Positions 2,415 to 24,740 of a stretch of 24,901 bases of DNA are shown here, piece after piece (positions within the stretch are counted from its first letter, which is position 1; each line of letters begins with the position of its first letter). A model generated the notes under the pieces. It was given only the letters and a program-made list of their open reading frames with translations. It was not told where the DNA came from and did no database searches. The stretch is from Pseudobdellovibrionaceae bacterium (GTDB lineage Bacteria > Bdellovibrionota > Bdellovibrionia > Bdellovibrionales > Bdellovibrionaceae): the NCBI GenBank assembly GCA_039810425.1, contig JBDHWW010000042.1:1-24901 (forward strand), in the 5' to 3' direction. The translations under genes were made by a program, and so were the position numbers.

Positions 2415-2680
2415 ATGTTGCCAGAGTGTGTATATTGCATAAAAGAGACAAATCCGTCCGCAGGAGTCCGGACGACGGTGGTGAAGTTCGGAAGCTTTGT
2501 CAGAAAAGCTGATGGCAAAATCGTTTCCCGTTACCGCTGTAAGGCTTGTCAGAAGACCTTTTCTTTAACCACATTGTCTCGCTGTTATAAACAAAAGAAA
2601 AGACACCTTAATCCGCAAATATATCTCCAACTCGTAAGTGGCACCTCTCAACGAAGAATAGCTCGGATTTTAAGGATTTA
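2415..2680 (+). pseudogene. Truncated transposase N-terminus (IS1/InsA- or IS1595-like zinc ribbon plus HTH start)
   Basis: CVYC...KFG.F...RYRCKACQKTFS zinc ribbon followed by SGTSQRRIARILRI (HTH). The frame then runs into the antisense of the DHS-like gene at 2678. No catalytic DDE domain is present. Confidence 0.7.
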
Positions 2681-3658
2681 CCAGCCGAGGACGTATCCAA
2701 AAATCAAAGGTGCCACGATAGTCGCATCGGATTCAACAATGTAACTCGGTGTCGTCGGAGCCAATTTACCCCAAGTGATTTTCTCATTTGGGATCGCGCC
2801 CGAGTATGATCCGTAGGATGTTGTAGAATCAGAAATTTGCGCGAAGTAACTCCACAGTGGAACATCGTCGTGACCCAAATCTTGTTCTAACATCGGAACG
2901 ACGCAGATTGGAAAGTCCCCCGCTATACCACCGCCAATTTGGAAGAAGCCAACCGGGTTTTTTTTCGAAGCGCCCATGTACCACTCCGCCCAGGTCTTCA
3001 TGTACTCGATGCCCCCCTTAACAGTGGTCGATTTCTTGATATCACCTTTAATGCAGTGACCTGCAAAAATATTCCCCAAGGTTGAGTCTTCCCAGCCTGG
3101 AACAACCATTGGAAGGTTCTTTTCAGCAGCGGCTAATAACCAAGAATTTTTTGGATCGATTTGGTAGTACTGATTCAATTTACCAGAGAGCAAGATTTTA
3201 TACATGAACTCGTGGGGGAAGTAAGACTCACCTTTTTTGTCAGCTTCTTGCCAGTATTCCAGCACAACATTCTCGATACGGCGAATCGCTTCTTCTTCCG
3301 GGATGCAAGTGTCCGTTACGCGGTTCAAATGCTTTTCCAAAAGCTTTTGCTCATCTTGCGGAGTTAAGTCACGGTAGTTCGGGATACGCACGTAATGATC
3401 ATGGGCAACTAAATTGAACACGTCTTCTTCAAGGTTTGCGCCTGTGCATGAAATCGCGTGAACTTTTCCTTGGCGGATCATTTCAGCCAAGCTTAAACCC
3501 AATTCCGCAGTTGACATAGCGCCCGCCAATGTCACAAGCATCTGACCTTTGTTGTCGATGTGCTTTTTGTAACCAACCGCAGCGTCTTTCAAAGCGGCCG
3601 CATTAAAGTGGCGATAGTGGTGATCAATAAACTTGGTAATAACTCCATTGGTATTCAT
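2678..3658 (-). CDS. Deoxyhypusine synthase-like protein (possible homospermidine synthase)
   Basis: DHS family motifs TLAGAMSTAELG, ISCTGANLEED, RVTDT, QIGGG and SYSGAIPNEKITWGK (catalytic Lys region), plus ESDATIVAPL. Confidence 0.92.
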   Translation of the reverse strand: MNTNGVITKFIDHHYRHFNAAALKDAAVGYKKHIDNKGQMLVTLAGAMSTAELGLSLAEMIRQGKVHAISCTGANLEEDVFNLVAHDHYVRIPNYRDLTPQDEQKLLEKHLNRVTDTCIPEEEAIRRIENVVLEYWQEADKKGESYFPHEFMYKILLSGKLNQYYQIDPKNSWLLAAAEKNLPMVVPGWEDSTLGNIFAGHCIKGDIKKSTTVKGGIEYMKTWAEWYMGASKKNPVGFFQIGGGIAGDFPICVVPMLEQDLGHDDVPLWSYFAQISDSTTSYGSYSGAIPNEKITWGKLAPTTPSYIVESDATIVAPLIFGYVLGW

Positions 3659-11868: not shown

Positions 11869-11942
11869 GTCTCGTTGTGAGACTTTCTTCCGCCTCGCCC
11901 CGCAGCCCTGAAGAACTGTCTCATTTTGAGGTGAAATGAGAC
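11869..11942. promoter_or_regulatory. Cluster of GTCTCA-N3-TGAGAC-like palindromes upstream of the cytochrome operon
   Basis: GTCTCGTTGTGAGAC (11869-11883), GTCTCATTTTGAGGT (11918-11932) and a half-site TGAGAC (11937-11942). Confidence 0.6.
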
Positions 11943-11985
11943 CGCCTGCGAATCGCGCCAACAACAATTTATTTTCAATTTTCCC

Positions 11986-12013
11986 TACACGCTTCGCCCC
12001 CAAATGCCGAAAA
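11986..12013 (+). promoter_or_regulatory. Possible sigma28-type promoter
   Basis: TACA-N16-GCCGAAAA versus consensus TAAA-N15-GCCGATAA. It would place the transcription start near 12020. Confidence 0.35.
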
Positions 12014-12170: not shown

Positions 12171-13448
12171 ATGAAGTTCATCGTCTATTCACTCATTACT
12201 TTGGGGATCGCTGGAGTGTTGACAGAACTGGCAAACGCGCAAGTGAGGCCAGATATCTCTGCTGCCAATCCCACTGCGATGGATCAGAAAGCTCGCAAAA
12301 TATATGAGCGCCTGACTGGTACGAAACTACCAGCGGACAGCCCTGTCATCGCTCAAATGGTGGCTTTATTGAATAAAGGCGATCTGGCGGGAGCTGCTCA
12401 GATTGCAACAGCGGATCCTAATTTTTTAAACATCACTGTGAAGCTCATGGCGTTAGAAATGTCCACGCGAGATGAGACGATTAAAACTCCGCTCAATGAC
12501 ATGGTGGCTGGAATCATCGGGGTCACCCGGGACCAGACAGATGCCCGTGAACTTTTGACGGGTAACTTCTACTATGTTGGAAGTGGCACTAATGTTCGTG
12601 TTGATTTGAACGCAGACATCCTCCTGTCTAATAATCACTACGCGGATTTAGAGTCGACTCGCCAGGACTTGGCGGCAAATCTGGTTCGGGTTGAGGGACA
12701 AAAGATCGCGACAAGCGCGACGACCAACGTCGCCAACCCAGATCCGGCCGGTGTTTTGACTTCTCGTGCCTTCATGGGCGCCCATGCCTTGATGGGCACA
12801 AATCGCCGCTTGGTTGAATATACTTTCCGCGAGTTCGCCTGCGTGCCACTCAGTGAATGGGCGGACACGGGGGCTTCTGACTTGCGTATCGGCCGCGATA
12901 TCGACCGCTTCCCTGCCGCTGACCATATGAAGTTCTTAACTTCTTGTAAAGGCTGCCACACTGTGATGGACGGATTCCGCGGGGCTTTCGCCAACTGGGA
13001 CTTCGACGGCATGGGCCTTAAGAATGCGACAGTCAACACGAAAGGCGGCGCAAGCGCCTTCGTGATTGCCGCCGATGGCAACAACGTTGTTACGAAAATG
13101 AACCGCAACAACACGGTCTTCCCGTCTGGTTACGTCATGACGAACAATACGTGGGTGAACAATGCGATTCGCCCCGCCAACGCCTCGTTCTTCGAATGGC
13201 GCGGCAGCACTTCCGGGGAAACTCTCGGTGGCACTGGCGTGAAGTCGTTCGGTACCTTGGTGGCGAACTCGCGCCGTTTCAGCCAATGCATGGCCAAACG
13301 CGTGTATAAATCAGTTTGCCGCAAGGAACTCGATACGGTGGCAAATAAGGAAAAACTGAAACAATGGGGCGATGAATTCGAAGCTTCCGGTTACAAAATC
13401 AAGAAGCTTTATGAAAACGTGGCTACTAAAACTGAGTGCTTAAACTAG
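12171..13448 (+). CDS. Secreted mono-heme c-type cytochrome-like protein (DUF1588/DUF1585-like)
   Basis: RBS AGGAGGGGG, signal peptide ending ANA and CKGCH at 12945-12959. AGVLTSRAF...TNRR...F..FAC and a C-terminal F.QCMAKRVYK..C resemble DUF1588/DUF1585 modules. Confidence 0.75.
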   Translation: MKFIVYSLITLGIAGVLTELANAQVRPDISAANPTAMDQKARKIYERLTGTKLPADSPVIAQMVALLNKGDLAGAAQIATADPNFLNITVKLMALEMSTRDETIKTPLNDMVAGIIGVTRDQTDARELLTGNFYYVGSGTNVRVDLNADILLSNNHYADLESTRQDLAANLVRVEGQKIATSATTNVANPDPAGVLTSRAFMGAHALMGTNRRLVEYTFREFACVPLSEWADTGASDLRIGRDIDRFPAADHMKFLTSCKGCHTVMDGFRGAFANWDFDGMGLKNATVNTKGGASAFVIAADGNNVVTKMNRNNTVFPSGYVMTNNTWVNNAIRPANASFFEWRGSTSGETLGGTGVKSFGTLVANSRRFSQCMAKRVYKSVCRKELDTVANKEKLKQWGDEFEASGYKIKKLYENVATKTECLN

Positions 13449-13457
13449 GAGGGGACT

Positions 13458-14129
13458 ATGACGAATAAATATTTAAAAATCATGTTAGTTCTAGTTCCTT
13501 CAATGGCGGTTGCGCTCTTCGGCTTCAATAACTGCGGACGCTATGGCGCCCTTCAAGATTCCGGTTCTTCAGACAGCTCCTCTTTAGGAAGCAGTTCTGC
13601 AGACGAAGTAAACTCCGAGAAGCTGGGCCTTCCTTATGCCCTTCTCTCGGCAGAGCAGACCCTTTCGTCGATGCTAAAGCTTGGCAACGTAACTACTGCC
13701 AGCACCGCGGTTATCAATGAATATAACAGCCGTTATGGCTCACTGGCTGCGGGAAATGACCTCAGTATGGTGAACGGTCCATTGATGCTGGGCTCGACAA
13801 GCCTTGCCGGTGAGGTCTGCAACAGCGTGGTCGCTCAAGAAAGGGCGATTACGGATGTCACCCAAAGAAACTTCTTTGGAAGCATCAACTTTGCCACCGG
13901 CGTCGCCGGCATTTCTGATGAAAACTTCGAAGCGGCTGTTCGCGGCATGGCTCGGCAGTTCTGGGGCCGCAACGAAAACATGGATGAGCTGACAATGTTG
14001 AAACAGTATAAAACTGAGTTCAGCGATGCCTTGGCTGCCAACGTGCGCACTCAAACGGCCTCGGCCAGCAACTTGATGCTGGCGACTTGCGCGGCAATGC
14101 TTTCAGCGGTGGATGCGATTTCATACTAG
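13458..14129 (+). CDS. Hypothetical lipoprotein (operon gene 2)
   Basis: RBS AGGAGGGG, lipobox FNNC and a Ser-rich linker. The helical C-terminus (ARQFWGRN...ATCAAMLS) is reminiscent of DUF1595-like partner domains. Confidence 0.8.
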   Translation: MTNKYLKIMLVLVPSMAVALFGFNNCGRYGALQDSGSSDSSSLGSSSADEVNSEKLGLPYALLSAEQTLSSMLKLGNVTTASTAVINEYNSRYGSLAAGNDLSMVNGPLMLGSTSLAGEVCNSVVAQERAITDVTQRNFFGSINFATGVAGISDENFEAAVRGMARQFWGRNENMDELTMLKQYKTEFSDALAANVRTQTASASNLMLATCAAMLSAVDAISY

Positions 14130-14174
14130 GTTTTTAAAATTCTAAGAGAGTTGTTATTTTCTCGGGGGGAGAAG

Positions 14175-15590
14175 ATGAGTAAAAACAAAAAAGACATACC
14201 TATGTGGGCGAAAACCGGTCATGCAAAACCGGTCACCCGCCGTGACTTTCTCTCTGCCGGCCTGATTCCGTTTGCGGCGAATATGTTTGTACCTAACTGG
14301 ATGTCCCTTTTGATCGGAAACAATGCCTTTGGCCAAACAACGGCTGCGGACTGCCCTGCTCCGGCATCGCTCATTCCCTTTGTGACCGTGAACCTCTCAG
14401 GTGGCGCGGCGATGGCGAGCAACTTCGTGCCAATGGATGCGGGTCGGCAACCTATTTCCAGCTACAACAAACTCGGTCTTGGCGACAACAAGGTGCCCCT
14501 TGAAACAGAATTCGGGAATGCGACTTTTGCCGCAAACCAAGTCAGTAAATTCCTCGTCGGCGTGCGCGCTCAAGCCATGGCCGCAACGATTGCAAATACG
14601 ACTTTCATTGGGATTCCTTGCGACTCCCAGAACGATACGAACACCAATAAATTCGATATTTCCGGCGCGATCACGAAAGCTGGTTTGGTAGGGTCCAACT
14701 TGCCAAATATGGGCCGCGTGAATACGCGCACCGGCATCAATCAAATGGCGGCCGTGGTTTCCCCGCCTTCCCCGCTCGTGGTGAACAATTACAACTCCTT
14801 GCTCACTTCGATTGGTTATAGCGCTTCGTTAGGAACCGCATTAAATCAAAACCAAAAGAACTCTTTGGCAAAACTGATGAGTAACTTGAGCGACAGTCAG
14901 ACTCGTAAGTTGGCTGCGATCCAAGGTGGTGAGGGTGTGAAGAAAGTTTTGGACTGCGCCGGCATTAAAAACGTCGACGTTGTTCAAAAAGGCTCTGCCA
15001 TCGTGGATCCACGCCAGAATACCGCGTTTGCCGGCGTTTGGGGCGTGAATACCAACACCAACGTTGGGACGCGCGAGTTGATTTTCGGTGCGATGATTTA
15101 CAATACCTTGATTGGTCAAGCTGGCGTTTCAAATCTCGAACTGGGTGGTTACGACTACCACGACAACACTCGTACCAGTGGCGATACGAAAGACCAAGAC
15201 GCCGGTGTTGTTGTCGGCCGCATCTTACAAAGTGCGGCTGTGCTGCAAAAGCCTGTGATGGTCTACGTTGTTTCTGATGGTTCTGTTTCTTCGTCTGAAT
15301 CAACGGCAAGAAATGCTCCCTGGGCCGGCGACCGTGGCTCTAACGGCGTGGCTTACTTGCTGTACTACGACCCGAGCGGCCGACCCGCAACCAGTGACTT
15401 CCAGATCGGTCAGTTCAATGACAACCAGGCCGCGGATCCTACGTTTGTGACGGGCGCAAATCCTGAACTTACGGCGGCTGCGGTGTTTGCGAATTGGTGT
15501 CAAGCCAACAAACGTAACGACTTGTTTGAGCGGGTGGCGGGCCGTATTCTGGACACCAACCAACTGGCGCAAGTTATTAAGATAGCGTAG
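14175..15590 (+). CDS. Tat-exported DUF1501/DUF1552-like putative metalloenzyme
   Basis: ATG 14175 follows GGGGGGAG. Twin-arginine TRRDFL at 14235-14252. NLSGGA, GGYDYHD and VVSDG parallel the DUF1501 motifs LxGG, GGWDTH and SEFG. Confidence 0.7.
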   Translation: MSKNKKDIPMWAKTGHAKPVTRRDFLSAGLIPFAANMFVPNWMSLLIGNNAFGQTTAADCPAPASLIPFVTVNLSGGAAMASNFVPMDAGRQPISSYNKLGLGDNKVPLETEFGNATFAANQVSKFLVGVRAQAMAATIANTTFIGIPCDSQNDTNTNKFDISGAITKAGLVGSNLPNMGRVNTRTGINQMAAVVSPPSPLVVNNYNSLLTSIGYSASLGTALNQNQKNSLAKLMSNLSDSQTRKLAAIQGGEGVKKVLDCAGIKNVDVVQKGSAIVDPRQNTAFAGVWGVNTNTNVGTRELIFGAMIYNTLIGQAGVSNLELGGYDYHDNTRTSGDTKDQDAGVVVGRILQSAAVLQKPVMVYVVSDGSVSSSESTARNAPWAGDRGSNGVAYLLYYDPSGRPATSDFQIGQFNDNQAADPTFVTGANPELTAAAVFANWCQANKRNDLFERVAGRILDTNQLAQVIKIA

Positions 15591-15638
15591 TCTTTGATAG
15601 ATCGCATTTCTGGTACGTTTTTGTTTTTTGGGGGAAGA

Positions 15639-16826
15639 GTGAACTCTATATTAAAGCTAAAACACATGCTTTGGGCAGCAGGAGCCATCGTGCTCGTTGT
15701 GGCCTTTAATAACTGCGGCGAAGGATTCGTCGCGCAAAATCTCAGCAGCCTCTCCGGCGGCTCCGCGCTGTTCTCCAGGGCGCCAGGGGAAAGCTGCGAA
15801 GATGCCCTCGTGAAGGTCTATGCCAACACTTACCACCCTTTCCTTAGCCAGACATGTAACAGCTGCCACATCAACGGTCCGGGCCTCGGTGTTTTCGCGA
15901 GCTCTAACGTCGCGACTTCTTACACTTCTTTTTCATCCATCGGCGCTGACAAAATCAGCAGCCAGGCTGTGAATGACTCTCACAAACCGCCTTATACGGG
16001 CTCGCAAAACACGGATCGCATTAACGAACTGAAATCCTACTGGGCCGCTGCTCAGACGGCTTATGCCGCTTGTTCTGCTGAGGCCGGCGGTTCAGCCGGC
16101 GGCTTCGCGGTTAAATCAACAGACCGACAAGTCGCCGCGACCCTTGCGACGACTTTCACCCGTATGGAGTGGGACCTTGAAACTCAAAGTAATGGGAAAG
16201 TTCCTTTGATTGCGGGCATCGACATTCGCCGTGCCGTTTTGGCAGGCGTGACTCGAGGTTATGAGTTCCGCAATCCAACTCTGCGTTTGAAAAACGCGGC
16301 TTCTGGCAACTATCAGGCACGCGCCCTCGCCATTTATATCAACGGAACATTACAATCAGAAGTAACGACTTATGCCAATATCGACCAAGTGATCTCAACG
16401 ACTACGGATATGAATCTGTCCGCGGGAACCGCCAATGCCTTGGCGGTGATGACTCCGAGTACGACCGATATGATAGCGATCGAGTGGCAAAAGCTCGGTT
16501 CAACGACTGGAGCGGCGAACCCTGGCGGAGGTGGCGGCGGTGGTACAGGAACGCCGACACCGACTCCTGTGCCTTCGGGTCCGGTGACGTACGCGCAGCT
16601 TTCTGCTAATGGCGGCCTTTTTGCGACATATTGCTTCAACTGCCATAAAGGCGCTGGGGCTAGTGGTAGCTTGGATTTGACGGTCTATGCGAACGCCAAG
16701 AATGCCGCGCAGAATATCAAGTCCCGCATTAACAACCAGAACAATCCAATGCCTACGGGCGGCTTGCTCCTGCAGGCTCAACGTGATGTGATTAGCGCTT
16801 GGGTGGACCAAGGAGCTCCGCCGTAA
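15639..16826 (+). CDS. Di-heme c-type cytochrome lipoprotein
   Basis: GTG 15639 follows GGGGGAAG. Lipobox FNNC, CNSCH (15855-15869) and CFNCH (16632-16646), a G7-TGTPTPTP linker, and a C-terminal MPxGxL...I..WVxQGA cytochrome domain. Confidence 0.85.
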   Translation: MNSILKLKHMLWAAGAIVLVVAFNNCGEGFVAQNLSSLSGGSALFSRAPGESCEDALVKVYANTYHPFLSQTCNSCHINGPGLGVFASSNVATSYTSFSSIGADKISSQAVNDSHKPPYTGSQNTDRINELKSYWAAAQTAYAACSAEAGGSAGGFAVKSTDRQVAATLATTFTRMEWDLETQSNGKVPLIAGIDIRRAVLAGVTRGYEFRNPTLRLKNAASGNYQARALAIYINGTLQSEVTTYANIDQVISTTTDMNLSAGTANALAVMTPSTTDMIAIEWQKLGSTTGAANPGGGGGGGTGTPTPTPVPSGPVTYAQLSANGGLFATYCFNCHKGAGASGSLDLTVYANAKNAAQNIKSRINNQNNPMPTGGLLLQAQRDVISAWVDQGAPP

Positions 16827-16847
16827 CAAGTGTCGCGTGAGGATATC

Positions 16848-17459
16848 ATGATTCAAATTTACGGGTCTCCAAAAAGCAGCGCAGGTCGCTGCTTTTTGAT
16901 GTTAGAAGAATGTGGTTTAAACTATCAAGTCATGCCCCTGGATATGGGAAAAAAGGAACACAAGGCTGAGCACTTCTTAAAGCTCAACCCCAACGGCAAA
17001 GTTCCGTGCATTGTCGACGACGGCTTCGTGTTGTGGGAATCGGCCGCCATCGTTCAATACCTGGCGCAGAAATATAAGCCTGAAATGCTGGGTACTAGCC
17101 TGAAGGACAAAGCGATGGTTCAGCAATGGTCATTCTGGACTATGACAGAGGCGCAACCTCCCCTCGTGGATATCCTGATTCAAAAGGTTTTCATGCCAGC
17201 GGATAAGCGCGATCATGCGTTGATTGAGCGTTGCGAGAAGAAGCTGCCGAATCTTTTTGTCGTTTTGGAAAATGAACTAAAAAACAAAAAGTTCTTGGTC
17301 GGCGAAACTTATTCCGTGGCGGACGTCATGGTCGCTTCAGCAACGAACCTAGCGCTGAGCCTCGGGATTGACTTTAGCCAATACCCAAACATCAAATCCT
17401 GGATGGCCGAAATTTCCAGCCGGCCTGCATGGCGCAAATTCGCCGAGCTTCGCATGTAG
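16848..17459 (+). CDS. Glutathione S-transferase family protein
   Basis: LNPNGKVP, LWESAAIVQYLA and FLVGETYSVADV motifs. GAGG RBS before ATG 16848. Confidence 0.93.
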   Translation: MIQIYGSPKSSAGRCFLMLEECGLNYQVMPLDMGKKEHKAEHFLKLNPNGKVPCIVDDGFVLWESAAIVQYLAQKYKPEMLGTSLKDKAMVQQWSFWTMTEAQPPLVDILIQKVFMPADKRDHALIERCEKKLPNLFVVLENELKNKKFLVGETYSVADVMVASATNLALSLGIDFSQYPNIKSWMAEISSRPAWRKFAELRM

Positions 17460-17639: not shown

Positions 17640-18854
17640 TCAGACCTGGTATTTATATTTCCGGGCGAAGATGAGGCAGAGAACTTCCAAGCCGCCGTTA
17701 CTGAAGGTTAGGCCCTTTTGTTTTTTGTAGCCTTCGGGGGGCTTTAGGCTCCGTACGCTTGTTTTGTTTGGCAATAACACGCCGATTTTTTCCGCCGCGA
17801 ATTTGTCGGCTATTTTTTGGATCAGGGCTTGATATGAGAACTCCGCTTGGCCCTCGACATTCAAACGCTCTCCGTACGGCGGATTCGCTAAACACCATAC
17901 AGGGCCCAAGGTCTTCTTTTCACCTCCAAAAAGATTCGCCACTTCGAACCGGACTTTGAGATTCTTGACTTCGACCCTTGATTCCAACTTCGCCAGATTT
18001 TCGCGCGCAGCCTCGATCACATCAGCATCTATATCAAAACCCCAGTAAGCTTTAAACGGGGCGGTGTCTGGAATTTGCTTGTAGTTTTTCTTCAATAGCG
18101 GGCTCTTGAAAATCTTCGGCGTGTTTTTCCACTCGAGAAATGCGTACGCGCGATCGAAAACCGGTTGCCACAGACTTGTCGCCTCCAACACCAACGTGCC
18201 CGAACCACACATGGGATCGACGAAAGCCACCTGCTGGGTTTTTGTCGCCGGCACGCCCTCCATCATTTCCATAATCATGTATGCGGCCAGCGTCTCGCGC
18301 AAAGGCGCTTCACCCTTTAAGAGGCCCCAGCCGCGTTTGTGGAGGTGCTCTCCGGTGCTATCCAGGCTCAATGTGCAAAGGTCATCATGTAGACGCACAT
18401 AAACCGTTTGCTTTGTCTTTGCTGGCCCTTGGATTTTACCCGCAACCTTCGCAAAGGCCTCCGCGCAAACGTCTTCGATGCGCTTTTCGTTGTTCAGGCG
18501 CGATTTGCTGGCCGCGACCTGCCACTCGATACCGGGGCCATTTAAAAAGTGGTCCCAGGGTATCCTCTGAATTTTCTCAAAGAGCTTTGGGAAGTCGCGG
18601 ACTTTAAACTCCGCCAAACGCCATAGCACACGATGCGCGGTTTTCAGAAAGAAATTCAGCTGCAGACCTAAAGGCAGCGGAGCTCTCACCAGAACACCCC
18701 CGTTGCCGAGAACCATCTCCGGCAACGGTGCCCGATTCGGCTGGCCGTTGATTTCAATCATCAGAGGCCAGGCTCGGCGAACCTCCGCCGCGACGGACTC
18801 TTCCAAACCTAAAGCGCAAGAAATATAAAATGACGAAACTGTTTCAGCGGCCAT
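17640..18854 (-). CDS. THUMP-domain class I SAM-dependent RNA methyltransferase (RlmL-like)
   Basis: CALGLE, LSLDSTGEHLHKRGW, APLRETLAA, DPMCGSGT, GFDID and NPPYGERL motifs. Confidence 0.92.
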   Translation of the reverse strand: MAAETVSSFYISCALGLEESVAAEVRRAWPLMIEINGQPNRAPLPEMVLGNGGVLVRAPLPLGLQLNFFLKTAHRVLWRLAEFKVRDFPKLFEKIQRIPWDHFLNGPGIEWQVAASKSRLNNEKRIEDVCAEAFAKVAGKIQGPAKTKQTVYVRLHDDLCTLSLDSTGEHLHKRGWGLLKGEAPLRETLAAYMIMEMMEGVPATKTQQVAFVDPMCGSGTLVLEATSLWQPVFDRAYAFLEWKNTPKIFKSPLLKKNYKQIPDTAPFKAYWGFDIDADVIEAARENLAKLESRVEVKNLKVRFEVANLFGGEKKTLGPVWCLANPPYGERLNVEGQAEFSYQALIQKIADKFAAEKIGVLLPNKTSVRSLKPPEGYKKQKGLTFSNGGLEVLCLIFARKYKYQV

Positions 18855-19873
18855 CAGAACCTCCAGTAGAGGTCGGCATTAAAGTAATAACCGTCTTTCA
18901 CGTTATAGATCAGGTTCGAGATATCCGTCGTGCTCACTCCTGATAATAAATGCATGTGATCCCAAATCCACATGTAAGAAACGTAACCCCCGACGGTTTT
19001 ATTTTGAAAGTTGTACGAAGGGCCCAGCAATACCCGGTTCCAGTCACTCATAATAAACTCATACCCGGACTGCAAAGAGCTTGTTCCGGCGATTTTTAAA
19101 GCCGTCTGGTTTTTGGCGCTGTCGTAGGTCGCCAGAGCCAAGGTTAAGTTCGTATGTGAAATCACATTCTCCGAGGATACGGAGTCCCAAAACACGGTCA
19201 TATTGATGGCACCCTCTTTAGTCTCTGGGGACTGATAGGCATTCATCCCGAGGGAAACGACATTGGAATCCGAATCGATGAATTTATACTTCCCTTGAAG
19301 GTTTGGCGCATCCAGAAAGTTTCCCGGCAAAACGCTGCCGACGGTGAACTTCGAAGTCACGCCATAGTCGAAGTAGCCGACAATATTAATCAGATACTCC
19401 CCTGCGCGAAGAGTCTGTGCCGTTTCACCGACACTTAAACCCATGAACACGAGCGCTTTATAGCTCGACGACGCCGCCGGATCTTCGTTCTTCATGATCA
19501 ACTCAGTGGTACCTCGGTATTCTTGATGGAATGTATTAAAGTCCATACGATAAAGGACGTCCCCGAGTTGGATCATCGCGAATTTCGAATGGCGAATAAG
19601 GCGGGCTCTCAAATGAAACTGTCCATCCCCTTCCGTCATTACGCTTTCAATTTGCACGAAGCCAATAATACCTTGAGAAGTGTCACGGCTTTGAACGACC
19701 AGGATCTCGCCGATTTTAAATTCCGAATAGGCGGTCAGTACCGTGAGCGTAGTTGCGGTGTCGATGGACTGCACGTATCCCCGCGCCCAATCATTGTCGA
19801 AAGCCAGGCTTTTATCCAGAGCCCACGCCCGCCAAGAAAATAAACTCAGGATTAAACACGCAATGTACTTCAT
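18854..19873 (-). CDS. Probable outer-membrane beta-barrel protein with an N-terminal beta domain
   Basis: Signal peptide ending AWA, amphipathic strands and C-terminal YFNADLYWRF (BAM-type terminal Phe). It overlaps both neighbours. Confidence 0.7.
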   Translation of the reverse strand: MKYIACLILSLFSWRAWALDKSLAFDNDWARGYVQSIDTATTLTVLTAYSEFKIGEILVVQSRDTSQGIIGFVQIESVMTEGDGQFHLRARLIRHSKFAMIQLGDVLYRMDFNTFHQEYRGTTELIMKNEDPAASSSYKALVFMGLSVGETAQTLRAGEYLINIVGYFDYGVTSKFTVGSVLPGNFLDAPNLQGKYKFIDSDSNVVSLGMNAYQSPETKEGAINMTVFWDSVSSENVISHTNLTLALATYDSAKNQTALKIAGTSSLQSGYEFIMSDWNRVLLGPSYNFQNKTVGGYVSYMWIWDHMHLLSGVSTTDISNLIYNVKDGYYFNADLYWRF

Positions 19874-21021
19874 AACGCCTTTTTAAAAACCTTCTCAAAG
19901 CTCATAAGCATCACAAATGAAACGGCCAGGGCCACAGGCCCCACCCATAACGCCATACTAATTCCGTAGCGATCCGTCAAATATCCCACAAGACCGTGCA
20001 TGCACACAGTAAAAAATGACTGTATTGCCATGCTGTATGAAACAGCTAAGTCCATGTTCTTTTCGTAATGGCCGGCCGTGTACAAAACCGCCAGTGGATA
20101 GAACGGAGCCATAAACAGCCCCGAAAGCGCTAAGAAGAAGGGAAAACCCTGCAAACCAATCGCGCAGGCTAGCATTGAGCTCACCAAAAAGAACCCGAGC
20201 ATCCGGCGCAGCCGCCATTTAAAGTGCACAAATGTAAACAACAACCGGCCTGCCAAAAGAAAAAAGAAGAAACCGGTTAAGTAATAACTCGACTGTTGAA
20301 GGTCCATCTCCAGTTCACGACGGACAAAGAGCGGCAAACGCGATGACACCATAATTTCCGCAAGAACATAAAATGCCAAAGTCACGGCCAGATAAATCTG
20401 CCCAAAGTGATCCTTACGGGTCTGTGGCGCCGGCGGAGTCAACGCCGACACCGCGGACTGGCGCTCTGCCGTGCCACGATCATGCCAGAAAAAAGAGCCC
20501 ACCAGCAACGCCACAGGCACAGTCGCCACGACATAAAAAACCTGGCGCCATGAACCCAGCCAAGAACTAAAAACCGCCACTGTGAGAGGGGCTAAAACCG
20601 AAGCCAGGCCATAATTGGAATGCAGCCCCGCCAGCATCTGCTGACGTTTGTTCGGTAACGACCCCACGCTGACAAGGACGTTCTGAATCACACCGACAAT
20701 CCCGAGGCTTGCTCCGAAGATCGCCGAAAAAAAAAGCATCCAGCCAAAGTCTTGAACCGACCCCATGCCGCCCAGGCCCACGGCCATCAAGAAGAGTGAA
20801 AACTGCAGAGTGCGAATGCGGCTCCAACGCAGAAGCAACAATCGCACCAAGAGGCTCCCGAGGATACCGCAGAAAGAACTGATCGCGTAGTAAACCGCGC
20901 CTTGAGTATCGCTGACGTGAAAAGCTTGGATGATCTCTGGGAATAACGGACCACGAATATTGTCACTAATCCCTAAAGCAAAGAGACTTAAGTACGCTAA
21001 AACGATGTATCCCCAAATCAC
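19870..21021 (-). CDS. MFS transporter (FucP/TsgA-like)
   Basis: About 12 TM segments with GPLFPEI, LHSNYGLASVLAP and GRLL motifs. GTGA/ATGA overlaps with neighbours. Confidence 0.88.
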   Translation of the reverse strand: MIWGYIVLAYLSLFALGISDNIRGPLFPEIIQAFHVSDTQGAVYYAISSFCGILGSLLVRLLLLRWSRIRTLQFSLFLMAVGLGGMGSVQDFGWMLFFSAIFGASLGIVGVIQNVLVSVGSLPNKRQQMLAGLHSNYGLASVLAPLTVAVFSSWLGSWRQVFYVVATVPVALLVGSFFWHDRGTAERQSAVSALTPPAPQTRKDHFGQIYLAVTLAFYVLAEIMVSSRLPLFVRRELEMDLQQSSYYLTGFFFFLLAGRLLFTFVHFKWRLRRMLGFFLVSSMLACAIGLQGFPFFLALSGLFMAPFYPLAVLYTAGHYEKNMDLAVSYSMAIQSFFTVCMHGLVGYLTDRYGISMALWVGPVALAVSFVMLMSFEKVFKKAL

Positions 21022-23357
21022 TTCGTGGCCGCCTGACTCTTCAAAACATTGAAAACTTGAAGAATCTTATCACGGCCCACATCCTCCAGGCTACCAAAAG
21101 CCTTTTGCGTTTGGAACAAAGTGTATTCCCCGAGCGTTGGTTTTTTTCCTTTATAGACGAGGAACAAGAAGAAATCCGTCACCATAAAGTCCGCCTTGAC
21201 CGGCGATACGCTTTTCATAAACTCAAGAAAGCGCGGCGCGGCCTTTTTGAGTTCTTCCCTATTCAACTTGCCGTCATGGTTTTCATCATAAACGCTCATC
21301 AGACTTTCAGTGTAATGCAAAAGCATCACCGCTGTCCGCAGCTCCGAAGTTTCGACTTTGCCCCCTTGAGAGGGCGCCGCCCGCGCCGAGGCCATCAAGT
21401 TGCCGTAGAAGGCCTTCCACTGATCGTCTTTCATAGGCATGATTTCGAGAACCATGCCCGGAAGATTGTTAAAGTATCTTGGAAAATTTCGGCGCAGAAC
21501 GGCGCTAAAACATGTTTCGTCCATCCAAGGATAGTCAAAAACATCACGATCGTTTAAAGCACATGTTTTCAGCAAATCCAGGCGAATGGACTCCGCCGAA
21601 GACATTCCCCCGGAAACGAGGAGGCTGACGAAATCAAACGTCTCGTTGGCATCCATCACGTTGTCACCGTTACCACCAGAAGTAAAAAAATTCGCTTCTT
21701 TAAAACTGCGGGCTCCGGAGTTCACGCTGCGCGGATCAAAAGCTTTGAGTTCAACACCGAGTGTATTGAAGTCCGAGTACCACTGTTCAAGGCCAGACTC
21801 GACAATGTTTTCCCGAGAAAGAACCGGATTGTGGGTATTGCCGTAGCCCAAAAGCATCGCTCGGCTCAAAGCACGCATGACGTTCCAGCGAGTGAGGGAG
21901 CCCCATGTCTGACGATACAAATCCGGGCGTCCCATGATGACTTGACGGCCATCCTGATTAAAGAAAACCGGAAACTTACGAATAAGAAGCGCCTTGCCCT
22001 CAATCCAGGCCTCGCGCAGAGCCTCTTGTTCCAAACTTTCAACGGAATAATTATCCGCAATGGCTTTGTCGGCGTTAAAGCCCTTTACCGCTCCGTCGAT
22101 TTCAGTAAAACTGATCGTGCTTTGGGCATCGAATTTTAAACTGTCGATAAACTCCTGATGGAGTTGAAAGATTTTAACTTCGTGCTTAAGGGCCACGATG
22201 TGGTTGCGCTCAAGCCCTACGAGGCCGCGTGAGTCGCCCCGGCGCTGGGGATCCAGCATCCTTAAGATGACTTTCTTATAAGTTTCTTTGATCGATGCCG
22301 AGCTGAGACCCCTTGGCATAAAACCACGGGTTTCCATGGTATCGAGGAGGTTGTCGATGCTTGCAAACGAAATGACGCCATCACGCTGAACCGGCAAGCT
22401 CTTCTCGAGAAGGTCCAGCGCGTCTTTGAATACAAGCACCACCGCTTTTTCCAGTTCCAGCGGACTCATTTGTTTTGGTTTAAAAAGCCCCAGGGGAAAC
22501 TGCGTCGCCGGGTCCTCGATTTTAATGAAGTAAACATAGCGCAAAGCCTCGCGATAAACACCCATAACCGTGTTGAGGGCCACATGCCAGTCTTGAGTAT
22601 TTCTGAGGTTGTTGCGATCTCCAATCAAAACATTTTTTGCGGCCTCCACCAGGACAAAGTGACTGCCAAGTTTTGCCGTCAGATAAAATGGTTCCGCCAC
22701 ATTGATGAACTTCTCCAGACCGTCCATGAACTTCTTAAGATCCTCGAAAGAATAATTGGAGTTCGCCACGTCGATTTGCTTAAATATCTGCCAGATCCCC
22801 TCGGAAAACTGATCCGTGGCCTGATCCACCTGAATCCAAGTCGGCTGTTTGTTTGCAGCCAGAAGTGTCGGCATATAAGGCGCCACTTTCGTGGCTTGAT
22901 CGCGAACAACATCAAGAAGTTCCACCAGACGCTGAATCTCGGTTTTGGTGATATACTTGTCTGAACCGCCGAGAAGAACTTGTTTTAATTTAAACAACTC
23001 GCCGCCAAACTCGGAGCTCACGTTGTTCTTTTTAAGAAAGTACTTACCGAAGAAGTTACGCAAGTCTTCCATGGTGTAAGCATCTGGAAAAGTCCCTTTG
23101 GTTTTATTCTTAAAATAAACCAAAGCATCTTTGGCGCAGTCAAATCCGCCGTGAATGTCGCTATCACTGACCGTTCCTTGCAGGAACTGGTTAATTTCTT
23201 CAGGCAGAGCCTGCAAGCACGTAAAACGCGCATTGGACATTTCAATCGTCTGCGGAGACTCCCGTTTTTCATCTAAAAAATTAGTGCAGGACACCGCCCC
23301 CGCCAAGGTGACCGCCAAAAGCAAACTCACGGAAGAGAGCGTCTTCTTAGAAAACAT
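21018..23357 (-). CDS. Large helical lipoprotein with EF-hand calcium-binding loop(s) (779 aa)
   Basis: Lipobox-like AVSC at residue 24, a canonical EF loop DENHDGKLNREE (21252-21287) and a degenerate loop GGNGDNVMDANE. Confidence 0.8.
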   Translation of the reverse strand: MFSKKTLSSVSLLLAVTLAGAVSCTNFLDEKRESPQTIEMSNARFTCLQALPEEINQFLQGTVSDSDIHGGFDCAKDALVYFKNKTKGTFPDAYTMEDLRNFFGKYFLKKNNVSSEFGGELFKLKQVLLGGSDKYITKTEIQRLVELLDVVRDQATKVAPYMPTLLAANKQPTWIQVDQATDQFSEGIWQIFKQIDVANSNYSFEDLKKFMDGLEKFINVAEPFYLTAKLGSHFVLVEAAKNVLIGDRNNLRNTQDWHVALNTVMGVYREALRYVYFIKIEDPATQFPLGLFKPKQMSPLELEKAVVLVFKDALDLLEKSLPVQRDGVISFASIDNLLDTMETRGFMPRGLSSASIKETYKKVILRMLDPQRRGDSRGLVGLERNHIVALKHEVKIFQLHQEFIDSLKFDAQSTISFTEIDGAVKGFNADKAIADNYSVESLEQEALREAWIEGKALLIRKFPVFFNQDGRQVIMGRPDLYRQTWGSLTRWNVMRALSRAMLLGYGNTHNPVLSRENIVESGLEQWYSDFNTLGVELKAFDPRSVNSGARSFKEANFFTSGGNGDNVMDANETFDFVSLLVSGGMSSAESIRLDLLKTCALNDRDVFDYPWMDETCFSAVLRRNFPRYFNNLPGMVLEIMPMKDDQWKAFYGNLMASARAAPSQGGKVETSELRTAVMLLHYTESLMSVYDENHDGKLNREELKKAAPRFLEFMKSVSPVKADFMVTDFFLFLVYKGKKPTLGEYTLFQTQKAFGSLEDVGRDKILQVFNVLKSQAATK

Positions 23358-24699
23358 AAGCAGCTCCCACCATGAACCGGTCTAAGTTTTTATACTGGGC
23401 GATTTCGTTCTGATTTTTCGCCGTCAGCTCACCCGCGCGAACAAGCTCCAGTTCGCTAAAGCCGCTCCAAAGTGAGCTCAAACGATAATTCAACATCCAC
23501 TGAATATATTCAAAGTCATTCTGTGCGCTCATGGTATAGCTGGCATGCGAGGTCAGACGGCGGTTGTTCTTCAGTAAGAACCGGTTGTCCATGGAGACCT
23601 TCACCGCCTGTTGGAACGGGTAGCGCATCGTCAGCGGCGCCCGATCCGCGCTTGCCATATCTCCGACCTCACGCACTTCGCCGCCATAAATATGGATCCC
23701 TTGCAACGAGATCGTGGTTGTTTTGAAAATCAGTTCCACAAACGGGCTCACCAAGGTCGCATCTTGGAATTGCGGATACGTCCACTTCCCATCGAATTCG
23801 AGATCTTTTTGCGGGCGATCGTAAACGCCGCTCAAGCCATATCGAAAGTATCCCATCTTATGGGACAAATCGAGACCGCCCAATGAATGGAAAAACACTT
23901 GCGGCTTCAAATCCACAACCCCGCGGAGCTTGCTTGTATCCAGCAAGCCACTATAGCCGAGGGCGAGCTCGTTTGAAGGCTTATACATGTAAGACATCTG
24001 CGCAAAAGCCTCCTCAGGATTCCCGAAGTTTAACTTTGCACCGTAGCTGGTTTGGAAAACCACTTGGGTTTCTTGCGGACGCTCGAAGTTATAATCGACA
24101 TCCGTCACTTCTTGGAAAATACGTACTGACTCCGGTGGACGACGGAACCATGGATTGCCACGCACGAAGACACCGTTAGAAATTTCAAACGTCGGCCCTT
24201 GATTTGGAATAAACAGCGGGGAGGCGAACATCGTTACCGAATAAAACTCACGGTCGGCCTGCCAGAAAAGACCTGAAAGACCTTGTTGCTGCGGACTCAG
24301 CGGGTTCCACTGAAAGAGCGGTTGCCACAAACCGAAATCCCAGCGCCGATCGAGCTCATTCCAATTCATCAACTTACGGCCAATGAAGAGCTTTTCGTTC
24401 TCGGAAGGCTTCGTTTGAAAATAAATTTCCGTGATGTTTAAGGAGTTCAGCAATGGTGCACCGAAAGCCACCGCACCGTCGATATCCATCTTTAGCATAT
24501 CATCGGTCAACGGCGAGCTCTTCAGGCCCAAGCCCACGAATTGATAGCTCGATTTCTGATTGGCCTCAAAGGATGGACTGATAAAGGAGTCCGAGAACAG
24601 GCGAAAATCTGAACGCAATTGCGCCATAGCCTGACCACCCAAAAAGGTCAGTCCCAGGATCAGGGTAATGGCTCTAGGCAATACGTTCTTTCTCAGCAT
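23347..24699 (-). CDS. Probable outer-membrane beta-barrel (porin/exporter-like) protein
   Basis: ATG 24699 follows CAGGAG. Signal peptide ends AMA. EIYF...LFIGRKLMNW...D.W is typical of porin/alginate-export-like barrels, and the C-terminus is GAAYVF. Confidence 0.75.
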   Translation of the reverse strand: MLRKNVLPRAITLILGLTFLGGQAMAQLRSDFRLFSDSFISPSFEANQKSSYQFVGLGLKSSPLTDDMLKMDIDGAVAFGAPLLNSLNITEIYFQTKPSENEKLFIGRKLMNWNELDRRWDFGLWQPLFQWNPLSPQQQGLSGLFWQADREFYSVTMFASPLFIPNQGPTFEISNGVFVRGNPWFRRPPESVRIFQEVTDVDYNFERPQETQVVFQTSYGAKLNFGNPEEAFAQMSYMYKPSNELALGYSGLLDTSKLRGVVDLKPQVFFHSLGGLDLSHKMGYFRYGLSGVYDRPQKDLEFDGKWTYPQFQDATLVSPFVELIFKTTTISLQGIHIYGGEVREVGDMASADRAPLTMRYPFQQAVKVSMDNRFLLKNNRRLTSHASYTMSAQNDFEYIQWMLNYRLSSLWSGFSELELVRAGELTAKNQNEIAQYKNLDRFMVGAAYVF

Positions 24700-24724
24700 G
24701 AATTCTCCTGCCAGGGCCTTAATC

Positions 24725-24740
24725 ATCAAATCCTATGCCC
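24725..24740 (-). promoter_or_regulatory. Putative sigma54-like promoter (GG-N10-GA variant)
   Basis: Minus strand reads GGGCATAGGATTTGAT. The palindrome TGTCAAATATTGGACA lies upstream at 24780-24795. Confidence 0.4.

Follow-up and report, generated by a model that had tools for sequence, protein, structure and literature searches.

A four-gene envelope cassette of Bdellovibrionota, very likely a split and reordered variant of the PSCyt3/PSD cytochrome module around a putative metalloenzyme

What are four adjacent genes doing together that encode three heme-binding motifs, two predicted lipoproteins and a twin-arginine signal, and that family databases barely recognize? They lie on contig JBDHWW010000042.1 of a Pseudobdellovibrionaceae bacterium, of which the window analyzed here is the whole stretch of 24,901 nucleotides. 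An initial annotation read them as an undescribed redox system of the cell envelope. The genes of this cassette, named G1 to G4, are the following:

12171-13448, + strand: G1, 425 aa, Sec-type signal and a single CxxCH motif
13458-14129, + strand: G2, 223 aa, predicted lipoprotein
14175-15590, + strand: G3, 471 aa, twin-arginine signal
15639-16826, + strand: G4, 395 aa, GTG start, predicted lipoprotein with two CxxCH domains

The shared orientation, the intergenic gaps of 9, 45 and 48 nt, the G-rich ribosome site before each gene and the protein motifs are all as that annotation described. G1 carries CKGCH at residues 259 to 263 (C259, C262 and H263), G2 carries FNNC with Cys26, G3 carries TRRDFL with the twin arginines R22-R23, and G4 carries FNNC with Cys26, CNSCH at 73 and CFNCH at 332. 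Export, lipidation and heme loading are predicted from these motifs; a CcsA/CcmF-type W-rich motif occurs on contig C41 of the source genome, by a crude pattern only. The FNNC of G2 and G4 differs from the textbook lipobox. Cys26 of both proteins is conserved in at least 90% of the aligned orthologues, and a loose lipobox pattern matches 102/116 G2 and 108/113 G4 sequences versus 7/116 for G1. Scanning the cassette with Pfam and NCBIfam gave a near-empty result, with a C-terminal cytochrome c domain on G4 and sub-threshold hints of PSD2 and PSCyt3 on G1. The cassette is present once in the source genome, where no canonical PSCyt3/PSD module was found, and a plasmid search with the locus returned no match.

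The sub-threshold hints point to the origin of the cassette. As a reference we took from the same phylum 19 canonical PSCyt3 proteins along with the 19 partners; in one canonical example the domains run PSD3 (172-233), PSD5 (256-311), PSD4 (327-455), PSCyt3 (473-567) and PSD2 (584-653), and the partner is a DUF1552 protein. G1 34-422 aligns to canonical residues 327-652, which hold PSD4, PSCyt3 and PSD2 (hhalign probability 98.1, E 6.5e-14), and G2 56-222 aligns to residues 166-310, which hold PSD3 and PSD5 (probability 95.9). A weaker alignment, carried mainly by the lipobox and the heme motif, places G4 15-81 on the N-terminal cytochrome at 50-108 (92.9). Reversed and column-shuffled controls reached at most 0.5 overall and 0.0 to 0.1 for G2. 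G2, G1 and G4 thus tile the 659-aa canonical protein collinearly and without overlap. From these alignments we conclude that the PSD3-PSD5-PSD4-PSCyt3-PSD2 chain is restored when G2 and G1 are combined and that G4 adds extra cytochrome domains. The domains of the chain are not on one polypeptide; G2 holds some and G1 the others, and G1 comes first in the gene order. The link to DUF1592/1588/1585-type cytochromes, proposed at the outset, is therefore real by profile alignment with controls. Individual sequences show it less clearly: the window G1 stays under the curated cut-offs for PSD2 (E 0.044) and for PSCyt3 (E 0.074), the window G2 has no Pfam match, and among 39 G1 members 21 match PSD2 and 6 match PSCyt3 at E<=0.05, with one orthologue (L040) clearing the PSD2 cut-off. 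The ESM Atlas neighbors of G1 include clusters named DUF1585.

The cassette is widespread in the phylum and keeps its order. Profiles of G3 match 128/301 genomes at E<=0.001 and those of G1 122/301 at E<=1e-30. Within the family of the source organism, both profiles match 27 of 37 near-complete genomes, and the same ten genomes lack both. Our survey combined 60 loci from genome records with 80 from a genome scan, two sets that overlap. It held 142 G3 matches, of which 126 had flanking sequence on both sides, and 122 of these 126 show G1-G2-G3-G4 in order. Of the four exceptions, three (L064 twice, L068) have a long fused G2 and no G4 as a gene of its own. For G2 and G4, the profiles derive from genes chosen by position in the first locus set, and single-sequence searches recover most of these genes independently. 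The genes expected from the first reading to co-occur in other genomes do so. Orthologues of G1 or G2 carry PA14 or Calx-beta insertions. In genus g4 (L049-L054), G1 is 616 to 635 aa long and its profile match falls in two pieces, which suggests that about 200 aa are inserted around residue 310; a canonical DUF1592 and DUF1552 module is present as well in several of these genomes. One genome (G228) holds a second, paralogous cassette (L070:7941-10292) in which G1 lacks both cysteines of the heme motif and G4 has two motifs.

Outside Bdellovibrionota, for which we relied on named matches and metagenome loci only, the relatives of G3 bear an unexpected name. The initial annotation had likened gene 3 to a gammaproteobacterial family mislabeled GspF, and the likeness is real: the window G3 is homologous to a Cellvibrio protein named GspF (29% identity over 431 columns, E 3e-35), a 631-member ESM Atlas cluster with that name scores 0.98, and a search that started from a divergent G3 brought up proteins named GspF in Teredinibacter, Cellvibrio and Glaciecola. 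The label "general secretion pathway protein GspF" is unsupported for this family and is best regarded as a misannotation, because Pfam scans of the window G3, 52 members and one GspF-type protein (which matched no Pfam family at all) found no T2SSF domain, and the proteins have a twin-arginine signal and a predicted soluble enzyme fold instead. The 71 G3 sequences compared were placed in a quick, unrooted tree, from which we read no direction of split or fusion; the GspF group forms in it one well-supported clade among the Bdellovibrionota sequences. Identity matrices are correlated as well, an effect of kinship to which we gave no weight.

We examined 80 GspF-type metagenome loci. Each of the 46 whose upstream flank spans 4.2 kb or more has G1 and, after it, a fused protein of about 835 aa, ordered as G4-like hemes, a LamG domain, the G4 middle domain and G2. 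Its N-terminal hemes match G4 (probability 98.1), residues 544-644 match G4 again (99.6), and its C-terminus is G2 (99.4). Beside G1 in these loci (e.g., L221:199-2937) lies a divergently oriented gene for a di-heme beta-propeller protein of about 900 aa with a hydrazine-synthase-alpha (HZS-alpha) middle domain. By a profile built from the GspF-type loci, it is present in 40/40 of those with at least 5.5 kb, and Pfam HZS_alpha confirms 5/5 of the proteins scanned; it was not found beside the cassettes of 115 Bdellovibrionota loci. This neighbor gives no substrate clue, since HZS-alpha homologues outside anammox are described, in the accessible text of the source, as being without the catalytic residues (PMC12758564). 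A protein of more than 2000 aa with FG-GAP, SpvB and RHS repeats follows G3 in a single metagenome locus (L273:9446-15554) and is not a conserved neighbor.

The four proteins very probably form one membrane-anchored complex, as first proposed. The main evidence is the natural gene fusions: one lineage joins G4 with G2, and a different lineage joins G2 with G1. The collinear tiling, the G4-LamG-G2 fusion in 46/46 loci, the four-gene order in 122/126 and the joint presence and absence of G1 and G3 all argue for a single machine.

The heme-bearing parts of this machine are strongly conserved. In G1, C259 and C262 are kept in 109/110 orthologues and H263 in 110/110. The AlphaFold2 model of G1 has a mean predicted local distance difference test score (pLDDT) of 92.3 and matched no fold in the PDB (best Z 5.0), although that alone is no proof that the fold is new. 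PDB sequence searches for G1 and G3 gave nothing significant, and the cytochrome P460 rows (E 0.25-0.31) span only the CxxCH region. The heme would sit next to an invariant G-T-N-R-R, Asp- and Arg-rich patch, and several Arg and Asp residues of G1 are invariant. Outside the motif, no His, Met or free Cys is invariant across the 110 orthologues, so that a distal ligand could be H156 (98/110) or K309 (108/110). A Cys ligand of the SoxA/TsdA kind was considered and rejected, as C224 and C373 are lost jointly and C383 and C423 are both invariant. These cysteines likely form disulfides, C224-C373 and C383-C423, the former because C224 is absent in all four rows that lack C373. In G2, C121 and C211 are invariant and likely form a disulfide too.

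In G4, Pfam Cytochrome_CBB3 covers residues 326-389 (E 3.6e-7), PSCyt1 matches 18/45 members, and a conserved middle domain separates the two heme domains. The first motif (C73, C76 and H77) is kept in 45/45 members and the second in 34/45. H115 is present in 45/45 and M371 in 24/45, so heme 1 is likely bis-His (H77, H115) and heme 2 likely class-I-like with His/Met ligation (H336, M371).

The identity of G3 qualifies the initial proposal. That proposal invoked DUF1501/DUF1552 Tat proteins, and by Pfam G3 is neither: DUF1552 (PF07586; HXXSHH) and DUF1501 (PF07394) each match 0/52 members. With the 19 canonical DUF1552 partners, alignment is limited to the N-terminal region (probability 3-41). 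Against 27 DUF1501-like proteins, the LxGG, GGxDxH and S/T-E/D motifs fall in register, but with a non-significant probability of 12.6, and in the ESM Atlas G3 scores 0.93 to a cluster in which 45% of the members have DUF1501. The structural model (pLDDT 81.6) points to an alkaline-phosphatase-superfamily fold. Foldseek gave TAB5 alkaline phosphatase as the best match (E 4e-4), and VIA-align superposed 218 residues on Xac NPP (Z 12.1, root mean square deviation 4.1). All 50 chains listed by VIA-align (Z 9-12, about 10% identity) are from families that we take to belong to the alkaline phosphatase superfamily.

Within this predicted fold, G3 probably has an Asp/His metal site. D154, D327, H329, D368 and G369 are invariant in 110/110 sequences, D386 is present in 109/110, T/S155 in 103/110 and Y328 of D-Y-H in 108/110, and N158 is near-invariant; the twin arginines R22-R23 are invariant in 52/52. 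The same residues (D154, T/S155, D327, H329, D368, G369 and D386) are all invariant in 26/26 GspF-type sequences, in which residue 160 is His (26/26), versus Phe in the window. GGYDYH of G3 falls on DUF1501 GGWDTH and its SDG on NPP SDHG, both in alignments of non-significant probability; the NPP profile alignment as a whole is uninformative (probability 1.8). The correspondence is not complete, as the invariant G369 stands where NPP S-D-H-G has His after Asp, and position 73 in the first strand is Asp in only 19/110.

The surroundings of the cassette were compared across 115 Bdellovibrionota and 57 GspF-type loci. Near the cassette in the former are a putative outer-membrane barrel protein of about 389 aa with an N-terminal CxxCH (28/115), an FG-GAP lipoprotein (28/115), mono-heme and di-heme cytochrome genes (24/115 each) and YceI (11/115). 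The barrel neighbors are Cyc2-like in layout and read YPxFI...CxxCH; they do not contain AxPxFAR[Q/K][T/Y], the Cyc2 motif that precedes CxxCH as defined in the available part of 10.1101/228056. Two places in the source genome (G000:C50:7307-10088 and G000:C40:7291-9848) combine a YceI-like gene, a cytochrome c and a putative barrel with an N-terminal CxxCH. A CARME-like methyltransferase of about 445 aa (L055:1959-3296; L291:8682-10010) occurs in 15/115 Bdellovibrionota and 15/57 GspF-type loci and was not found in the source genome. In 10/115 loci, a signal peptidase II homologue follows G4 (e.g., L071:3391-4233), fitting the need to process unusual lipoboxes. In the window, a glutathione S-transferase gene (16842-17459, same strand) begins 15 nt past G4 and is possibly co-transcribed. 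We rejected it (3/115 loci) and the upstream nuclease-like gene (4/115) as cassette members. Farther away, the minus strand of 18854-24729 encodes an unannotated 460-aa barrel-like protein, a membrane transporter-like gene, an unannotated 339-aa protein and a predicted lipoprotein of 779 aa that has a single EF-hand-like motif. At 2415-2744 there is a short zinc-ribbon ORF, similar to a transposase remnant, overlapping the end of what appears to be a deoxyhypusine synthase-like gene (2678-3658).

The upstream region offered one tentative regulatory feature:

11985-12012, + strand: sigma-28 (FliA)-like promoter site, weak (4 mismatches to the consensus), 158 nt 5' of G1

In the related locus L150, a site without mismatches lies equally far upstream of G1. 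Sites with at most 2 mismatches occur upstream in 28/110 loci, compared with 4 to 12 in ten shuffles, 8 on the reverse strand and 7/116 in coding controls; the enrichment fades at 3 mismatches. The FliA consensus, and FliA as a marker of attack-phase genes, come from the available text of PMC3627812. Sigma-54, Fur and Pho boxes were found in 4, 0 and 0 of 71 upstream regions and are not general, and sigma-70 and terminator scans stayed at shuffle level. Upstream of G1, at 11918-11942, lies an inverted repeat of 9 bp without mismatch around a loop of 7 nt; its half-site occurs in 25/71 upstream regions versus about 10 in shuffles.

How would such a complex work? The reading that we prefer, and to which we give about an even chance, is a lipid-anchored periplasmic oxidoreductase that couples the G3 metal site to a heme relay, built from a split PSCyt3/PSD module. 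G3 would receive its metal in the cytoplasm and be exported in the folded state through twin-arginine translocation (Tat). It would then dock on a scaffold of G2 and G1, so that its metal site and the single heme of G1 could form the catalytic center, while the two hemes of G4 could relay electrons, in one direction or the other, between this center and the pool of periplasmic cytochromes. A redox function is favored because of the three conserved CxxCH motifs, the candidate distal ligands on G4, the adjoining cytochrome genes (24-28/115) and the HZS-alpha gene (40/40). An envelope or polymer substrate is suggested by the lectin- or adhesion-type plug-ins of the relatives (LamG, PA14, Calx-beta and FG-GAP). 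Redox catalysis with gene 3 as the catalytic subunit, as proposed at the outset, is still an inference; the predicted fold of gene 3 is that of hydrolases and phosphotransferases. Several observations weigh against a redox enzyme. All listed structural neighbors of G3 are, judged by title and family, hydrolases, mutases or transferases, with no redox enzyme among them. T/S155 beside the invariant D154 could be an ordinary nucleophile. Furthermore, 20/113 G4 orthologues have one heme motif only, and the paralogous G1 of L070 has none.

The first two of these points lead to the strongest alternative, which we nevertheless consider rather unlikely: G3 would be a conventional alkaline-phosphatase-superfamily hydrolase or phosphotransferase acting through Thr155 on an envelope phospho- or sulfo-ester, and the heme proteins would serve as its anchor or as a redox-dependent gate. 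Alkaline phosphatase uses an Asp-Ser nucleophile pair, which D154-T/S155 resembles, and D327-x-H329 and S-D368-G are in register with the metal-ligand motifs of DUF1501-like proteins and NPP, albeit in low-probability alignments. The replacement of the NPP His by the invariant G369 and the scarcity of Asp at position 73 speak against it, and three c-type hemes are not a known requirement of any hydrolase in this superfamily.

A second alternative turns the relation between the proteins around. In a maturation system like MauG/MbnH, the G1 heme, fed by G4, would oxidize a G3 residue such as Tyr328 to give a protein-derived cofactor. The absence from G1 of an invariant His, Met or free Cys beyond the heme motif, its conserved Arg and Asp, and the retention of Y328 are consistent with this idea. 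We judge it improbable, since Tat export suggests that the cofactor is inserted into G3 before export, and G1 resembled neither MauG nor cytochrome c peroxidases in PDB fold searches, although a missing match is weak evidence.

A trans-envelope electron conduit, in which G3 is a noncatalytic metal-binding subunit working with the neighboring heme-bearing barrel, is highly improbable: the barrel is near 28/115 loci and has two homologues elsewhere in the source genome, but it is missing from 87/115 loci as fetched and from the window, it does not have the Cyc2 consensus, and the strict conservation of the G3 Asp/His site argues for catalysis. We give just as little credence to a machine dedicated to predation, modifying the envelope of the prey during the attack phase, as its wide spread in Bdellovibrionota and the enrichment of FliA-like sites are set against its absence from 10/37 near-complete genomes of its own family, the 4 mismatches of the window site, the nonindependence of related loci and the homologues named from Teredinibacter, Cellvibrio and Glaciecola, which are not known to be obligate predators.

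Returning to the periplasmic oxidoreductase, its boldest version would be a new class of envelope enzyme, in which an alkaline phosphatase fold is turned to redox chemistry with a heme c protein of unsolved fold and a di-heme relay, induced in the attack phase, the split form explaining the whole PSCyt/PSD-DUF1501/1552 superfamily. We regard this version as unlikely. Modules of PSCyt/PSD with DUF1501/1552 are abundant in several phyla, and the cassette ties together Bdellovibrionota hypothetical proteins, gammaproteobacterial "GspF" proteins with LamG, and DUF1592 proteins. It is also a good biochemical handle, being naturally cut into small subunits and present in single copy with no canonical module to mask a knockout. 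G1 is a target for structure determination, and the "GspF" name is flagged here as a misannotation.

It is important to consider how far the cassette departs from what is in print. The literature that we covered, which left out most subscription papers, held no account of the four-gene form or its function, nor a later functional study, and the legible parts of the Bdellovibrio bacteriovorus proteome supplements contain none of the DUF1585, DUF1588, DUF1592 and DUF1552 labels (PMC12546842). Within this coverage, the claim of an undescribed system holds for the four-gene form, but not for the underlying architecture: the cassette is very likely a split, reordered variant of a module already described as functionally unknown. 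In the available text of He et al. 2017 (PMC5615132), the function of PSCyt3-PSD genes beside DUF1552 is called unknown. Their "Group III" (DUF1587, DUF1595, DUF1592, DUF1588 and DUF1585) has, by profile alignment, the same domains in the same N-to-C order as G2 followed by G1, and in both an exported cytochrome stands beside a twin-arginine partner. The cassette differs from it in the three-gene split, the reordering to G1-G2-G3-G4, the two lipoprotein anchors, the scores below Pfam cut-offs and a partner that is not DUF1552.

The modules of DUF1501 with PSCyt1, PSCyt2 and PSD1 are alike in placing a twin-arginine enzyme-like protein beside a cytochrome-motif protein with plug-in carbohydrate-binding domains, and the accessible part of Kamneva et al. 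2012 (PMC3542564) calls the function of PSCyt2 beside DUF1501 in Planctomycetes-Verrucomicrobia-Chlamydiae (PVC) bacteria unknown and proposes electron transport for such modules. In contrast, the cytochrome of the cassette is of the PSCyt3 type, and G3 has no DUF1501 Pfam match. GspF-type loci, in which the G3 relatives have DUF1585- and LamG-domain neighbors, share the G3 family, its invariant residues and an upstream G1; they differ by their count of three genes, by the fusion of G4 and G2 around LamG, by bis-His ligation at both hemes and by the divergently encoded HZS-alpha-like gene. Finally, with the alkaline phosphatase superfamily (NPP, sulfatases, phosphoethanolamine transferases and iPGM), G3 shares the predicted core fold and Asp/His residues at motif-equivalent places, and it is set apart from these enzymes by its altered ligand set, its predicted Tat export and its constant heme partners.

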